Virus record (IMG/VR): IMGVR_UViG_3300034126_000020
Location: 96,001-160,000 of that record
Source: a virus
Taxonomy: Duplodnaviria; Caudoviricetes
Reading direction: 5' to 3' (one strand)
Length of the DNA: 64,000 nt
The notes beneath the pieces were generated by a model that worked only from the letters and a program-made list of their open reading frames with translations, made no database searches and was not told the DNA's origin. Numbering within the stretch: position 1 is the first letter of the stretch; each line of letters opens with the position of its first letter. This document shows, in pieces, positions 7,727-61,628 of this stretch. A program made the position numbers and the translations under genes.

Positions 7727-9109
7727 TTACGATTGTGTCGAATCGCTCGCCTCATCCAGGTACTTTTTGTACGAGGGGTTCTGCCTGTCGACCATCACCA
7801 CGACTTCCGTCGTCACCTGATGGATCTTCTGATGCATACCAGTCCCCGATACTGCCGAATACGAGTGAGAGTGAATCACGACCGCATTGACAAAAGCAGG
7901 TGTGCCGTCTACCAGAAACGCCACTTCACATTGCAGACCCGGTTGGATAGCATCTGGGTTACTGTTCTCCCAGTTCATCGTCAGGAATGCACCATTGCGC
8001 ACAGCGATCTTGCTCGCTTCGTTGAACGCGTTGGATGTACCGATGTCACTGCTGACACGGGACATGTTGTTGGCTTTTCGAGTGACTGCCTCGTACTCAT
8101 TTGCGTTGTTGGTTCTTTTTGCCACGGCTTTGTTACCGCCGGTCTCGAAGAACCCTTCCATCATTGCGTCGGTGTTGGCAAAGCGAGTGCCGTTACCTTC
8201 GTTCAACAACAGAATCTCAGAGGGGTCTGTACGCTGCACCCCACCGGTCACAAACACGCTCAGGTGCTTGTCTACGATGCGCCATGTCCGTTCCACCCCT
8301 CGGTACTGCTGAGAGGGCGCTAGGATGAACATCGCCGTGTACTCGGCCGTGTCATAGCGCATGAAGTTATACAGCGGCCAGACGTGCCAGAAGCCCTTCT
8401 TGAGGTAACACCCGACGCCGGCTGTGTAGATCCCGCCGTATTCCTTCTGAAGCTTGTCCGCCACTGACACCAAGGACGTCCCATGAGGGATGATGGTGTT
8501 CGAGCGTTTGGTCAAGTTGTTCGGAGGGACACTGTTGATCCCTAGGATGGATTGCTCCACCTCAAGGTCCATGTTCTTGATCGAGTTGCTCAATAGCGCG
8601 ATCAGGATGTCAAATGGCGTACTGTCCCGGAACACCCCACCGACCAGCTCAGAGCGGGTCAAGGCAAAGGCTTCTTCTTGTAACTGCACCGTCACTGTCT
8701 TGAGTCCCGAGAGGTCTGCCGAATACTCGGTGGCCGTCTCGGGGCTGTCTGCCATGGTGGCGGTCTCACCCTCAGCGGGCAAGTACGCATTGAACGTCTG
8801 AACCACGATGGCATCGGCAGTGGATTCACCCTGCTGCCCCACACGCGAACGTGTGACTGTCATCTTCAGGTTCTCCTTGAACGGGAGAACACGGTTCAGG
8901 TATTGACCCCAAGGCAACACGACCTTGATCAGCATTTCATCCGTGGCTGCGTTACGGTAGTCACCGATGGAATCGGTACTGACCACGATCATCGCCGGTA
9001 CTTCTTCTTTCTCGGTGACGAACGTGGCTTCGTAACTGTAGTAGGACTCCTGTCCATCGCGCTTGATCAGGTCGTATTCAGCATTGAGGGTCGTCTGGGA
9101 GAATTCCAT
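7727..9109 (-). CDS. virion structural protein, probable baseplate hub (phiKZ gp101-like)
   Basis: size and position at the end of the gp83-gp101-like structural block; function inferred. Confidence 0.6.
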   Translation of the reverse strand: MEFSQTTLNAEYDLIKRDGQESYYSYEATFVTEKEEVPAMIVVSTDSIGDYRNAATDEMLIKVVLPWGQYLNRVLPFKENLKMTVTRSRVGQQGESTADAIVVQTFNAYLPAEGETATMADSPETATEYSADLSGLKTVTVQLQEEAFALTRSELVGGVFRDSTPFDILIALLSNSIKNMDLEVEQSILGINSVPPNNLTKRSNTIIPHGTSLVSVADKLQKEYGGIYTAGVGCYLKKGFWHVWPLYNFMRYDTAEYTAMFILAPSQQYRGVERTWRIVDKHLSVFVTGGVQRTDPSEILLLNEGNGTRFANTDAMMEGFFETGGNKAVAKRTNNANEYEAVTRKANNMSRVSSDIGTSNAFNEASKIAVRNGAFLTMNWENSNPDAIQPGLQCEVAFLVDGTPAFVNAVVIHSHSYSAVSGTGMHQKIHQVTTEVVVMVDRQNPSYKKYLDEASDSTQS

Positions 9110-9124
9110 GAGGACCCCTTGCGG

Positions 9125-9721
9125 TTACTTGCGGGCTTGGTTACGTTCGGCCAGCAGTGCTTCGATCCGGCCCATGATTGGAGAGGTGTCTTGAACCACA
9201 GTGCCAACACCCGTTGGGTTGAAGAGTTCTTCTGCCCCAGCCACCCCACCAAACAGCGCGGACATGCGCTTGAGTTGAGGGACGTCACCGACCTTAGGCT
9301 TAAAGCCCATGACCTGTGACTGGATGGTCTTGCAGTAGTCGGACATCAAGTACAACGACTGAAGCGGTGCATCCTTGACGTTCGGGTCGTGTTGGATGTG
9401 ACGCTGCCAGAACCCGATGTGAGCGATCAGGACTTCGTAGATGGTCACGAGGTCTTCACGGTGTTGCATCAGGATGTCGGCACCCTTCTCGTAGAGCTTG
9501 AGGATGTCCTCAATGGTGCCCCCGATGTTGACGTATTCGGACATCGCATCGGCATCGCCCTTCTTGGACCCTGTGCTCAGGTGCCCCACCTTCTCGTTGT
9601 GCTCACGAGAGTAACGATAGTAGCCGGGAATGGCGTACAGGTAGGTGGCGTGGAAGATGTGCTTGCGGACCGAATCAATGTTGGTCAGGTCCAGACCCGG
9701 GAACATGGTCTTGTTGGTCAC
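9125..9721 (-). CDS. conserved phiKZ-like protein (gp100-like position)
   Basis: synteny; translationally coupled to the upstream gene. Confidence 0.6.
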   Translation of the reverse strand: MTNKTMFPGLDLTNIDSVRKHIFHATYLYAIPGYYRYSREHNEKVGHLSTGSKKGDADAMSEYVNIGGTIEDILKLYEKGADILMQHREDLVTIYEVLIAHIGFWQRHIQHDPNVKDAPLQSLYLMSDYCKTIQSQVMGFKPKVGDVPQLKRMSALFGGVAGAEELFNPTGVGTVVQDTSPIMGRIEALLAERNQARK

Positions 9722-36690: not shown

Positions 36691-37575
36691 TTACTTCAGT
36701 TGGTAGTCTTTGACGATCTTACCGCCGACTCCGGCGTTAATGACCATGGGGTTGATCCAGATGGTTTTACCAGATCGTTTATAAGTACGGTCATGACCAC
36801 GGCGATCATGTTCGCGACTCTGACGACGTTCACCGCAATCGCCAGTCTCAGTCCGACCTGCACTGACGATACGCTCTGACTTGTTGACCACCAGAATCCG
36901 GTAGCTGTCATACGGCAACGCTTTCTTACGTTGTTCGGTGAAGGTCATCTTCTTGGCAGGTATCTCCTGCTCAGAGATGTTACTGAAGGCAAAGGCTTCG
37001 CACAACTCACAGAGAGCCAGGGTTGGTCCTCGCATGGTGGCACCGGCCAGCTTCTCGAACCACTCCTTGCTCAGGCCAATGTCATTGGTCAGGGTGCAGG
37101 GGAGGATGCCGCTCTCAAGAAGCTCAAACATCGGGCCTTTCTCTGAGGGCATCTTGGCGATGAACGGTGCACTGATCCACGTGCTTTGATCAGGCACGTG
37201 ACTGACCACGGTGATCTCAATAGGGCCTGCGCCTTCCTGAGTGGCGATCACAATGATCTTGTCCCGATAACAGTGACCGGAGGTCATCAGTTTCAGTATC
37301 GGGTCCTCAATGTGGTGCAGGGCGGCTTCGGCTGCTATTGCTGCCAGATAGTCTTCCTTGTGGTAATACTCAATCACCACACAAGGGTAGGGCAACCGGA
37401 TCTTCTCCGGAAGACAACGCAGGTTGTTGTCCAACACCCGACCACCTTCCGGCAGTGCGAACTTAGGAGCTGTCATGGCTGCTTGAAGCGTCGCTGCCAA
37501 CTCATTGTTACCGGCAATCCGCTTCGAGCGTTTGAAGAACTCCATCGCTGTTCGGAAATAGTTAGGACCTTCCAT
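36691..37575 (-). CDS. phage hypothetical protein with C-terminal HxRRGHxR motif
   Basis: REHDRRGHDR...IWINPMVING-like tail seen in many phage proteins. Confidence 0.7.
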   Translation of the reverse strand: MEGPNYFRTAMEFFKRSKRIAGNNELAATLQAAMTAPKFALPEGGRVLDNNLRCLPEKIRLPYPCVVIEYYHKEDYLAAIAAEAALHHIEDPILKLMTSGHCYRDKIIVIATQEGAGPIEITVVSHVPDQSTWISAPFIAKMPSEKGPMFELLESGILPCTLTNDIGLSKEWFEKLAGATMRGPTLALCELCEAFAFSNISEQEIPAKKMTFTEQRKKALPYDSYRILVVNKSERIVSAGRTETGDCGERRQSREHDRRGHDRTYKRSGKTIWINPMVINAGVGGKIVKDYQLK

Positions 37576-38023
37576 TCTTTCTCCTGCTGTCGCCTAAGGC
37601 AACCGTGATATCTGCTTGGATGAACGGGTAGATGGCTCGGTAGACGTAACTGATGTCGTCTTCCCAGCTCAACCCGCCATGTCCACAGCCCATGGGTGGT
37701 AAGACAATGCGTCCGAGTCTGTGCCGTTGGGCCAAGACTGCAATCTTGTTGATGTGATGGACAACCAGACTACGGGGAGATGCGTCTCGCCAGTCTAGTT
37801 TCGTGGGCACCAACAGATAACGAATGTCGTTGTGTTTATACGTGATGATGTTCCCTGGCTCAATCGTTGGGTACATCTTGCGATAGTGCTTGTGAAGCCC
37901 TGGGACCGTGTTACGGGCAGTTCGAGCCACTCCGGCTCCCATTGCCCCGACCAGATTGATCGTGATCACACGGGTGTCCGCAGGGACGTCAAACAGGTCT
38001 TGTTCCACGATCGTTAGTGACAT
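37562..38023 (-). CDS. DarG/TARG1-like (Poa1p-type) macrodomain
   Basis: NLVGAMGAGVA, PTKLDWR and LPPMGCGHGGLSW signature. Confidence 0.85.
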   Translation of the reverse strand: MSLTIVEQDLFDVPADTRVITINLVGAMGAGVARTARNTVPGLHKHYRKMYPTIEPGNIITYKHNDIRYLLVPTKLDWRDASPRSLVVHHINKIAVLAQRHRLGRIVLPPMGCGHGGLSWEDDISYVYRAIYPFIQADITVALGDSRRKNGRS

Positions 38024-38072
38024 TGAGATGGCCTCTGGTGTACAACTTGATAATGTATCGTCTTAACCAAAT

Positions 38073-38101
38073 CGAATAAAAGGAGGGCCGAAGCCCTCCC
38101 C
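38073..38101 (-). terminator. intrinsic terminator (UUCG hairpin + TTTTATT)
   Basis: GGGAGGGC-TTCG-GCCCTCC-TTTTATTC right after the stop at 38102. Confidence 0.8.
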
Positions 38102-38512
38102 TTACTTTTTCTTTCCGCCAGGCGGACCCGCGACACCACCCATCAACTTGTTGACCTCGGTGTCCTCTTTCGTGGAGACCGTGTCACACCGCTTGAGGAC
38201 TGCTTCCGCACGATCACGGGGCATCCTCATGAAGGTGTCAAGTGACATGCCGGTGTATTTGAGTACGTTGGCAACCAAGTATCGCTCAAGGTACACATCA
38301 AACGGATCAACCAGTGCCAGGTCTTCGGACTCGTGCATCGCAATCGAGGCGTACGGACTCATGCCTTGAGAGCTTTGTGCGTGGACCCCGAAGTAGTCGT
38401 CGTAACACTCGGTGATGATGATCTGGGCTGGAATGCTGTCAAGAGTCCCTTCGAACTTTGACAGCACTTCGTCAAGGGCAGTGATGCTGTCCTTGTCCTC
38501 CAGCTTGTCCAT
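38102..38512 (-). CDS. conserved protein; probable frameshift extension of the upstream gene (T4 gp51/tail-chaperone-like)
   Basis: weak RBS; frame open upstream through the slippery site. Confidence 0.65.
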   Translation of the reverse strand: MDKLEDKDSITALDEVLSKFEGTLDSIPAQIIITECYDDYFGVHAQSSQGMSPYASIAMHESEDLALVDPFDVYLERYLVANVLKYTGMSLDTFMRMPRDRAEAVLKRCDTVSTKEDTEVNKLMGGVAGPPGGKKK

Positions 38513-38553
38513 CCCGAACCGACGATCACCAGCATGGTAGCCTAACGGAAGGG

Positions 38554-40152
38554 TTAGACTGCCGCGCCTTCTACTTGGCTGATCTTCAGTGCGGCTAGGG
38601 TGAAAAAAACGTAACCGATGTCGATTGGGATCAAGTACGGATGCGTTTGGTCTTCAGGCTCCTTCTGGCACGCCGGGCACTTGACTTTCGGCAGGCCGAT
38701 GTAGGAGACCGTGGACTTCTTGATCCATTCGATGATTTCGTTGGTGAAGCGATCACCGACTTCTGGGTCTTCGGACAACATCTCGAGGATACGGTCTTTG
38801 TTCACCAGGTCATCGTAGATCACCGGCGCCGAGTCAGCGTCCAAGGCGTGCTCGAAGTGAGCCACCCAATGACTGTACTGACGCAGGTTCGTCAACGCAC
38901 CACTGCGCATGATGTGTCGAACGCGGTCCATCTCAGACAGACGCGCACCGAACGCATCGTTGGTCGCTTTGGAGATACCGTCAACCCACACGTGACCGGA
39001 ATCGATCTGTGCAGCCAGCGAAGGCACCTTCAATACCGCAGTCAGGTTGTTACCCAGTGCGATACGCTTTTCAGTGAAGGTGAACTCGGCTTGGTATTCA
39101 GCCAGCCACTTCGCATCACGCTTGGCGCTACGCGAGGCCATCTTCAGCGCTTGGCCCGGGGTGAACTTGGAACGGTCAACAAAGCCCATACGAGCAAAGT
39201 TGATCAGCACTTCGTCGACGTGCTTGCACTTGTCCGGATCGGCAACGCACGGCTGACGCAGCGGGTAACCGTCTGGGTACATTGCACAGGCCAGACCCCA
39301 CAGCACTTGCTGGTAGTCACGGCTACGGATCACGTCCATCAGCTCATCAACAGTCTCGCCAGTTTCAAAGGCGTAGTTGACGGAGACGACGTGCTCCAGA
39401 GCGAAGCGCATGTAGGTTTCAACAGTGTAGACTTCCACTGCCGAGAACACCATGCCGTTCGAGGAGCGACCGAGGTTCATCTTCTCCATGCGGGTCTTCT
39501 GTTCGAAGTCCAGCAGAGCCTGGATGGTCGGGGCACGGAAGGTGAGCCACAGACCGGTGTTCCACAATGGCACTTGCACCATCGAGCCTTGGCCAAAGGT
39601 CGCACGGATTGCCATGATCGGGTCTTTCATGTTGGCAGGTTTGACCTTACCAGCACCCAGAGCCGTTTCATTGTGCATCAACGTGTTGTGCCAGTTGCCT
39701 TCTTTGTCGATGCCGTCGAAGTACATGTCTTGCCATACGGCGGACAGACTGCGGGACAGGTTGACCAGACGGCGGTCTTCAGGCGAGAGGGTCTTGGCCT
39801 TCTCGTCAGTGAGATCGTTCAGACCACGGTGATCCATGATCATGCCCATCTCTTCCATGCCGACCTTCAGCGCAACGAGGCCTGGGCGACCTGGATCGAG
39901 GTCTTGACGTTTGAACATGGGTGACGCCATGGTGACGTGCGGGTTCGGACTGTCGAACTCTGCCCACAGTCCTTCGATTTCCATGCTGACTTCGGGTACT
40001 TGTTCTTCTGGAGCTTTAGCAGTGGCCGCTGCTGTGGTGGCTTGGGCGAATGCTTCAGCGCTGGTAGCGCCGTCTACGTTCGGTACCAAGTTGGACGTGT
40101 CCAATTCCACCTCGTCCATTCCTTCATTCTGGGGTTTCTGGTCGTCGCTCAT
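38554..40152 (-). CDS. conserved phiKZ gp77-like protein with C-terminal CxxC (T4 gp26/tail-chaperone-like)
   Basis: synteny between the helicase and vRNAP genes; KCPACQ motif. Confidence 0.65.
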   Translation of the reverse strand: MSDDQKPQNEGMDEVELDTSNLVPNVDGATSAEAFAQATTAAATAKAPEEQVPEVSMEIEGLWAEFDSPNPHVTMASPMFKRQDLDPGRPGLVALKVGMEEMGMIMDHRGLNDLTDEKAKTLSPEDRRLVNLSRSLSAVWQDMYFDGIDKEGNWHNTLMHNETALGAGKVKPANMKDPIMAIRATFGQGSMVQVPLWNTGLWLTFRAPTIQALLDFEQKTRMEKMNLGRSSNGMVFSAVEVYTVETYMRFALEHVVSVNYAFETGETVDELMDVIRSRDYQQVLWGLACAMYPDGYPLRQPCVADPDKCKHVDEVLINFARMGFVDRSKFTPGQALKMASRSAKRDAKWLAEYQAEFTFTEKRIALGNNLTAVLKVPSLAAQIDSGHVWVDGISKATNDAFGARLSEMDRVRHIMRSGALTNLRQYSHWVAHFEHALDADSAPVIYDDLVNKDRILEMLSEDPEVGDRFTNEIIEWIKKSTVSYIGLPKVKCPACQKEPEDQTHPYLIPIDIGYVFFTLAALKISQVEGAAV

Positions 40153-40164
40153 GTCTCTGCCTTA

Positions 40165-40548
40165 TCACGCAGTTTTCTTTTCGGAACGAACAAGATCACC
40201 AATCAGGTCCATCAGCTCACCGGAATGGGGAGAGACGGTTGCAGTGGTCTGTTCAATGAAATCATAGTAATCACCACCGGCCTTCAACAGGACAGGGTGA
40301 TTAGGATTATTCAACACAGCTGAGGTGATCTCAGCGCTGTGCTTGGACTTGATCCCGTCGAGACGTTTCTTCATCTCTTCCAGATCACGTTTGATGATGC
40401 GGGTCAGCTCAGCGACGCGCTTGCCGTTTGGAGATTTGCTCCAGTCGTAACGAGCAGCGTCTTGGGTGGTTGTAGCGAAACTGTGCAGAAGTCTCAAGGA
40501 CTGTTGGTGAAGGGACTGCAACCCCTGACTCCGTGTAAGCTTGGACAT
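40165..40548 (-). CDS. hypothetical protein (gp78-like position)
   Basis: start at MSKLTR; synteny. Confidence 0.6.
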   Translation of the reverse strand: MSKLTRSQGLQSLHQQSLRLLHSFATTTQDAARYDWSKSPNGKRVAELTRIIKRDLEEMKKRLDGIKSKHSAEITSAVLNNPNHPVLLKAGGDYYDFIEQTTATVSPHSGELMDLIGDLVRSEKKTA

Positions 40549-40645
40549 GATCGTTTGAACCCCAGTAATATGGAAAATGGACTGGCCAATTATTTGTACT
40601 TTACTCATAGTAGGTCGGCTAAACTTTTTTTATTAGGAATACACA

Positions 40646-56520: not shown

Positions 56521-56607
56521 CGGTTACTCCCATTACACTACAGGTTAGCGCTCGCTTACCAATTAGATAATGTATCTCTGAAGAAAATTCAAACGAGGAA
56601 CACGGGC

Positions 56608-61497: not shown

Positions 61498-61628
61498 CCT
61501 CGATGGTTACTGGTTACAATGAGATAATGTATCGCCGAAAAGCACTCGAGCAGAACGCCGTCAGGGTATAAGAGTCGACACAGGACCAAGACTGGTCCTG
61601 TGTCGATGCTGGCTATGTCGGGCTCGTT

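Follow-up and report, generated by a model that had tools for sequence, protein, structure and literature searches.

In phage lambda, the tail assembly chaperones gpG and gpGT reportedly arise through a −1 frameshift, which is said to be conserved in tail assembly chaperones, including E/E+E′ of P2 and those of Mu. Classical −1 frameshifts on T- or A-rich heptamers are also found in T7 gene 10A/10B, where G_GUU_UUC near the 3′ end adds a C-terminal extension, and in Escherichia coli dnaX, and the gag-pol shift of human immunodeficiency virus type 1 (HIV-1) takes place on U_UUU_UUA. Here we analyze a gene of related layout in a 64,000-nucleotide (nt) stretch of DNA, hereafter the window, which covers positions 96,001 to 160,000 of the IMG/VR virus record IMGVR_UViG_3300034126_000020 (Duplodnaviria; Caudoviricetes). 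In the window, a gene of 532 amino acids (aa) on the minus strand (38554..40152), the orthologue of phiKZ gp77, is followed by a small open reading frame (ORF) of 136 aa. Sequence comparison across the family makes it likely that a programmed −1 ribosomal frameshift near the end of the gp77-family gene yields two proteins, a short form and a C-terminally extended long form.

The first-pass annotation of this locus, made without database searches, had likened it to the G/GT tail chaperone genes, and for the layout this holds. As in lambda, the upstream ORF carries the slip site close to its 3′ end, and the ORF that follows lies in the −1 frame and lacks a reliable start; two non-virion products in a fixed ratio, one short and one extended at the C terminus, are proposed here; and the frameshift outlasts sequence divergence. 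Membership in the chaperone family, however, is not borne out. The upstream protein has 532 aa compared with ~100–150 aa, the gene is not located between genes for the tail tube and the tape measure, the shift would take place on U_UUU_UUC instead of G_GGA_AAG, and no sequence or fold match to the chaperone families, including those of Pfam and PHROG, was found among the matches listed. The dnaX tau/gamma shift differs in that it truncates the product and uses an upstream Shine–Dalgarno-like element and a downstream hairpin, no such elements being evident here. The HIV-1 heptamer is of the same all-U type as ours, and Bacillus phage AgentSmith, one of the relatives discussed below, has exactly T_TTT_TTA; HIV-1, however, is a eukaryotic virus, in which the slip site is followed by a stimulatory stem-loop.

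The proposed shift site

The zero frame of the 532-aa ORF reads GGT TAC GTT TTT TTC ACC CTA at the proposed site, and the heptamer T_TTT_TTC (38602..38608, minus strand) falls on the codons of the invariant residues Phe516 and Phe517, 15 codons ahead of the TAA stop (38556..38554). The 136-aa ORF (38102..38512, minus strand) sits in the −1 frame relative to the 532-aa ORF. A TGA closes this frame 15 codons before the heptamer, and the 30 codons between the heptamer and the ATG of the 136-aa ORF contain no stop. Read from the shift onward (38102..38608, minus strand), the −1 frame comprises 168 codons, including those of the two phenylalanines, and then a TAA. The predicted fusion therefore has 515 + 168 = 683 aa, with 166 residues added after the Phe pair. 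The heptamer, the extent of the open −1 frame, and the size of the fusion, together with the poor ribosome-binding site of the 136-aa ORF, had been described in the first-pass annotation and were all recovered.

The T run had also been said to go against the codon preference of the gene. Indeed, TTT makes up only 19.6% of the Phe codons in the window (137 TTT versus 563 TTC), and GTT accounts for 13.5% of Val codons. Among the 34 in-frame Phe-Phe pairs in 45 long ORFs, only one is written T_TTT_TTC, the one at the slip site, and this is also the only coding-strand run of seven or more T's in the window (17,441 codons). Because TTT is rare and the T run is unique in the coding sequence of the window, the heptamer exceeds what would be expected by chance. 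As a separate observation, the Leu codon CTA (38596–38598, minus strand), which lies two codons past the slip site, is likewise rare in the window (2.6% of Leu codons), and the same codon is found at this position in DT01, Eowyn, Goslar, Ea35-70, and PCH45, several of them distant lineages; it may reflect the overlapping −1 frame, a pause in translation, or chance.

On the proposed mechanism, most ribosomes would stay in the zero frame on GTT TTT TTC and terminate 15 codons on, releasing the 532-aa short form with its C-terminal helix completed. A fraction, with tRNA-Phe in both the P and A sites on UUU UUC, would slip one base back on U_UUU_UUC and re-pair on UUU UUU. U_UUU_UUY is a classical site of simultaneous slippage, at which tRNA-Phe re-pairs fully in both sites. 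The slipped ribosomes would then cross the old stop and a 41-nt linker into the 136-aa ORF, producing the 683-aa long form, which would consist of residues 1–517 of the short form, a flexible linker of ~30 residues carrying an H-x4-FG motif, and a helical domain of ~135 residues with a basic tail. On the frameshift reading, therefore, the small ORF does not stand as a gene of its own.

Comparison of 29 loci

We compared the window with 5 close IMG/VR relatives (64–90% identity) and 23 GenBank phages, 29 loci in all from more than 20 lineages, with hosts in Pseudomonas, Xanthomonas, Burkholderia, Ralstonia, Erwinia, Salmonella, Klebsiella, Serratia, E. coli, Vibrio, Aeromonas, Stenotrophomonas, and Bacillus. 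In all 29, the conserved downstream domain lies in the −1 frame of the gp77 orthologue, a run of five to eight T's sits on the Phe-Phe codons of a near-invariant FF(T)L motif, and the −1 frame then continues from this run for 156–178 codons without a stop. F516, F517, and L519 are invariant in the family alignment (A3). The heptamer, T_TTT_TTY/A in X_XXY_YYZ phase, is present in 25 of the 29 loci, and the wobble T of the codon that precedes the Phe pair is kept even though this codon specifies Val, Thr, Leu, Ala, Ile, or Gly. Conservation of a slippery site and of an open −1 overlap in orthologues had been set as the test of a fusion of the two ORFs by a −1 shift at T_TTT_TTC. Both are kept, neither loss of the site nor stops in the overlap occur in the 29 loci, and the comparison supports the predicted shift.

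Counted from the T run, a conserved Tyr in the extension lies at no fewer than 13 different distances (55–73 codons), with no frame break and no stop. Therefore, the linker has undergone many insertions and deletions, all in multiples of three. In 10 loci the −1 frame is closed 2–5 codons upstream of the T run, and the zero frame stops 10–46 codons downstream of it; the T run is thus the only place shared by the loci at which the frame could change.

One alternative is that no recoding takes place, the 136-aa ORF being an ordinary gene that is translated from its own ATG (38512), or from noncanonical starts in relatives, and the heptamer being incidental. Such an ATG is present in the window and in two relatives, and a separate small gene is annotated in all public records examined. 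However, besides having a poor ribosome-binding site, the ATG is not conserved: among the close relatives it is kept only in those labeled L017 and L018, while L019–L021 have an Ile codon and the closest isolate, DT01, has TTA. The peptide encoded upstream of the window's ATG is nevertheless conserved among seven close relatives. The annotated starts of the small ORF vary among ATG, GTG, TTG, and CTG, are unrelated in position, and lie −4 to 218 nt from the upstream stop, and conserved motifs precede every canonical start in most lineages. The first ATG, GTG, or TTG in the −1 frame comes after the conserved H-x4-FG motif in 20 of the 29 loci, and in PA7 (codon 87), AgentSmith (89), Ea35-70 (70), and Aeromonas D3 (67) it comes after a conserved YD motif as well, such that independent initiation would remove half of the domain.

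The nucleotide substitutions in the linker bear on the same question. This 41-nt "intergenic" segment (38513..38553, minus strand), whose H-x4-FG motif is kept throughout the family and precedes any conserved start codon, has no start codon in the window. Among the seven close relatives, its variable sites by −1-frame codon position 1, 2, and 3 number 5 of 13, 6 of 14, and 14 of 14. Differing codons are synonymous or nonsynonymous in a ratio of 107:81 when read in the −1 frame, compared with 7:163 in the zero frame and 14:153 in the +1 frame. This pattern is a signature of −1-frame translation. In the preceding 48-nt overlap (38554..38601, minus strand), the zero frame encodes the last 15 residues of the short form, which are the end of its C-terminal helix, and the stop, and the −1 frame encodes the first part of the linker. 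Variation among the seven relatives is confined here to 8 of 46 sites, most of them third positions of zero-frame codons, and such near-invariance is expected from dual coding. Selection on a linker that lies upstream of the ATG, together with the survival of the frame relation and of the open frame through at least 12 insertion or deletion events, leaves an ordinary, separately initiated gene as a very unlikely account of the locus.

Termination followed by reinitiation, or another form of coupling in which ribosomes restart in the −1 frame near the TAA without a normal start codon, would draw on the closeness of the stop to the downstream ORF (41 nt here, and the distances given above to the annotated starts in relatives). 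It leaves unexplained the coding selection right after the stop where there is no start codon, as well as the conserved T run 10–46 codons before the stop and the open −1 overlap, and we consider it highly improbable.

No fused or unshifted version of the gene was found. A search of 1.84 billion representative proteins with the extension returned 136 matches, of which 135 are 97–186 aa long with ragged N termini, and the remaining one is an unrelated repetitive protein. Relatives of the 532-aa protein in the same set number 46, all of 520–557 aa, and no in-frame fusion of ~680 aa is among the 1.84 billion. The frame break has thus been kept and not resolved, which argues that both products matter and suggests that both forms would be needed in a set ratio. 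These data also bear on the idea that the frame break is a homopolymer sequencing error in a true single ORF of 683 aa, or that the gene is decaying and the small ORF is its dead remnant. Homopolymers are indeed error-prone on some sequencing platforms. However, 29 genomes that were sequenced independently in the course of two decades share the same break, with differing T-run lengths, and the extension is under purifying selection; error or decay is effectively refuted by the comparative data and hardly merits further consideration.

The remaining alternative concerns the mechanism. A phage or host polymerase could add one U on the T run in some of the mRNAs, and such transcriptional slippage would give the same two products. 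It would account for a conserved element that is a homopolymer of five to eight T's and for a wobble T that lengthens the run across different amino acids, and no structure that would stimulate ribosomes was found. In addition, phiKZ-like phages transcribe with their own unusual multisubunit polymerases. However, well-studied bacterial transcriptional slippage occurs on runs of ~9 or more. The runs here are five to seven in most loci, five in two, and at most eight, although a phage polymerase may differ in this respect. The exact X_XXY_YYZ phase of the 25 perfect heptamers also points to the ribosome, since U_UUU_UUY/A is its classical slip site. Because the T runs are short, we rate transcriptional slippage low, as an unlikely source of the two products, and infer that the shift is ribosomal. 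That recoding of one kind or the other, ribosomal or transcriptional, takes place at the T run of the gp77 family appears highly probable from the alignments.

Several observations weigh against a programmed ribosomal shift. The conserved homopolymer just discussed is one of them. Another is that 4 of the 29 loci lack a perfect X_XXY_YYZ heptamer, three having G/A_TTT_TTY and Vibrio phage JHP1101 having CTT_TTT_A. The window does contain an ATG, and some independent initiation of the 136-aa ORF may occur. The 29 loci are also related lineages and not 29 independent trials; the arguments from insertions and deletions, start codons, and stop codons are independent of this. Finally, no common fold was found in the 75 nt after the site (16 lineages, z +0.85 to −2.95; pseudoknots were not searched for). 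The stem-loop GCCGC...GCGGC (38561..38595, minus strand) that the first-pass annotation had pointed out downstream of the heptamer is present, and it forms in the minimum-energy fold (−20.7 kcal/mol). Its role as a stimulator finds no support, as its z is −1.42, the inner stem is broken in L020 and L021, and no structure recurs consistently across the family; the outer stem does not vary and is thus uninformative on stem-loop conservation. As no significant or conserved downstream structure was found, the efficiency of the predicted frameshift may be low or modest, as for lambda G/GT.

Gene family, neighborhood, and possible function

The 532-aa protein matches phrog_4585 (E 7e-91) and also phrog_8054, and the extension matches phrog_12109 (E 4e-18); Pfam and NCBIfam searches with either gave no family. 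By tblastn, relatives of the 532-aa protein are found in 234 phage records, all of them phiKZ-like jumbo phages. GenBank notes give phiKZ gp77, 201phi2-1 gp136, and EL gp47 as orthologues, and the phiKZ counterpart of the small ORF is PHIKZ076.4. The virus record that contains the window is 276,810 bp long with terminal repeats, and the isolate closest to the window is Pseudomonas phage pPa_SNUABM_DT01 (72% amino-acid identity). Gene numbers shared with phiKZ were misleading in several cases. "gp77" of Goslar is a capsid decorator under that phage's own numbering, "gp77/gp78" of PhiPA3 and "gp76/gp77" of PCH45 are other genes, and the essential gp78 of SPN3US is not the orthologue either, the SPN3US-type orthologue being gene 40 (655 aa).

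The order gp79-like (minus), gp78-like (plus), gp77-like (plus), and small ORF (plus) is kept across all annotated relatives examined, and the neighbors of the 532-aa gene include gp78/gp79-like genes, RNA polymerase subunit genes, and a macrodomain gene. Upstream of the 532-aa gene in the window lies a co-oriented 147-aa gene (40165..40608, minus strand), placed by position alone at the site of the phiKZ gp78-like gene in annotated relatives; it would be the first gene of a conserved gp78–gp77–extension unit. Directly 3′ of the stop of the extension is an intrinsic terminator (38075..38106, minus strand) with a 14-pair stem, a TTCG loop, and a T tract, which is the end of the transcription unit. 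Right after this terminator, just upstream of the macrodomain ORF (37562..38023), is one copy of the 10-mer ATACATTATC, which occurs exactly three times on the minus strand (38049–38058, 56566–56575, and 61523–61532). With one mismatch there are four sites compared with 1.2 expected, a count reached in 4 of 100 shuffles, and ATACATTATC is a candidate phage promoter motif.

The AlphaFold2 (AF2) model of the 532-aa protein has a predicted local distance difference test (pLDDT) score of 82 and a predicted template modeling (pTM) score of 0.81. Its cysteines C302, C309, C492, and C495 (C-x6-C and C-x2-C) do not vary in 31 homologues, the most distant at 23% identity, and probably form a structural zinc site. 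In the model, the C-terminal helix spans residues 512–531 and includes the Phe pair of the slip site; in the long form this helix would be cut after F517 and a disordered linker would take its place. The extension is predicted to be helical (pLDDT 82) apart from its disordered residues 1–16 (pLDDT <50), with a helix of 30 residues and a Lys-rich tail at the end of the modeled domain. Fold searches of the PDB with both models (Foldseek, VIA-wide) returned nothing above background, the best hits being single helices (Z 6.3 and 5.1), and no chaperone was among the matches listed. Profile searches of PDB sequences with the 532-aa protein and the extension gave no match.

In a Foldseek search of BFVD, the 532-aa model retrieved its orthologues and then T4-type "baseplate hub" or "hub assembly" proteins of ~250 aa (E 1e-4 to 1e-2, TM score by target 0.45–0.56, ~320 columns), and a viral cluster in the ESM-Atlas, in which 14% of members carry PF12322, has a TM score of 0.49 to the model. 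PF12322 itself was not found at E ≤ 10 anywhere in the 276.8-kb genome, a weak negative, since the search matched none of its control genomes, and hmmscan likewise gave no match; nor did the 532-aa protein match phrog_150 or phrog_634. The first-pass annotation had suggested profile comparison with tail chaperones and with T4 gp26 and gp51. No tail chaperone was among the matches listed, gp51 gave no meaningful match to the extension, and gp26 gave a weak match to the upstream protein: hhalign aligned the family profile with T4 gp26 only over the C-terminal CPxC...TH...(V/L)I pattern (30 columns, E 0.0014, probability 17.6%). In this alignment, the second Cys pair, C492 and C495, falls on the CPEC of gp26, and by eye the collinearity with residues 492–519 runs on to the Phe pair, four residues before the gp26 stop.

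In T4 (NC_000866), gp26 (208 aa; 7803–8429 of the extracted locus) and gp51 (249 aa; 8480–9229) both match phrog_150 and align to each other (E 2e-6), and the longer C terminus of gp51 also matches phrog_634. They are paralogues of different length, and T4 thus encodes the shorter and the longer one in separate genes. The T4 pair would in this respect be a two-gene counterpart of the proposed short and long forms, and gp26 ends four residues past its FF, at the point where the gp77-family gene is predicted to shift. However, gp26 ends ...EFFELL with FF encoded by TTC TTT, which is not slippery, the 532-aa protein is 2.5 times longer than gp26, and the extension has no similarity to the gp51 C terminus. 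A gp51-like nature of the extension finds no support in sequence or fold, the BFVD search having returned only orthologous small ORFs; alignments of the extension with gp26 and gp51 gave no meaningful match, and otherwise it matched only its own orthologues. In T4, the last base of the gene 26 stop codon is also the first base of gene 25, which is thus in the −1 frame.

Clues to where and when the protein acts are mixed. The Goslar counterparts, gp81 and gp82, are not mentioned in the text of the Goslar virion cryo-electron microscopy preprint that was word-searched, which covers 28 virion proteins, and this fits a non-virion assembly factor. The 201phi2-1 record carries a mass-spectrometry note on the neighboring gp138 and none on gp136 or gp135. 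In contrast, Churi gp256, a homologue of phiKZ gp077, is one of 15 proteins that proteomics detected early in infection (Table 1 of PMC11849849), which does not fit a purely late role in tail assembly; the growth-inhibition result of the same authors singled out gp335 (PMC11849849). Taken together, a gp26-like relationship of the upstream 532-aa protein is weakly supported, and the short and long forms may act in assembly as a non-virion factor related to gp26 and gp51. That they are the Chimalliviridae counterpart of these T4 hub-assembly paralogues, with one frameshifted gene in place of two, is a tentative proposal that we would not favor on present clues. Given the weak fold and motif matches and the mixed virion and early-infection clues, a hub-assembly role is therefore a lead and not a finding.

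Annotation and significance

None of the 23 GenBank records examined annotates a frameshift in the gp77-family gene; two separate genes are given instead. Public records thus hold a gene of 520–690 aa and a "hypothetical" small ORF with an arbitrary start. The PA7 annotation (2739–2981 of the extracted locus) covers only the last 80 aa of a conserved frame of 167 codons, the small ORFs of RSL2 (2781) and Ea35-70 (2565) are annotated with CTG starts, and that of 201phi2-1 (2526) with a TTG start that overlaps gp136 by 4 nt (positions in the extracted loci). The supposition that such a frameshift had not been described for phiKZ-like phages agrees with the literature searched, in which the accessible text, including a 2025 Annual Review on nucleus-forming phages, the core-genome paper, and the Goslar virion structure, contains no description of one for this gene. 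The mechanism is classical; the instance, a family-wide recoding in a core gene of nucleus-forming phages, is new.

The phiKZ-like nucleus-forming phages are among the most studied phages, and yet a universally conserved gene of theirs appears to be misannotated in every record examined. The correction would apply to the 29 genomes compared here and probably to most of the 234 phage records with a gp77 relative. The predicted isoform of ~680 aa matters for proteomics, knockouts, and transposon sequencing (Tn-seq), as a hit in the "small gene" would be a hit in the long form. If the hub-assembly proposal were true, the shift point would coincide with the place where gp26 ends and gp51 continues, a function would be assigned to a core gene of nucleus-forming phages, and frameshift-encoded short and long pairs would be an ancient solution to baseplate-hub assembly, parallel to G/GT for tail tubes. 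The recoding signal appears to have been held for the whole history of the family, in phages of both Gram-negative and Gram-positive hosts, and two isoforms made in a fixed ratio would offer a concrete handle on the function of this core protein.

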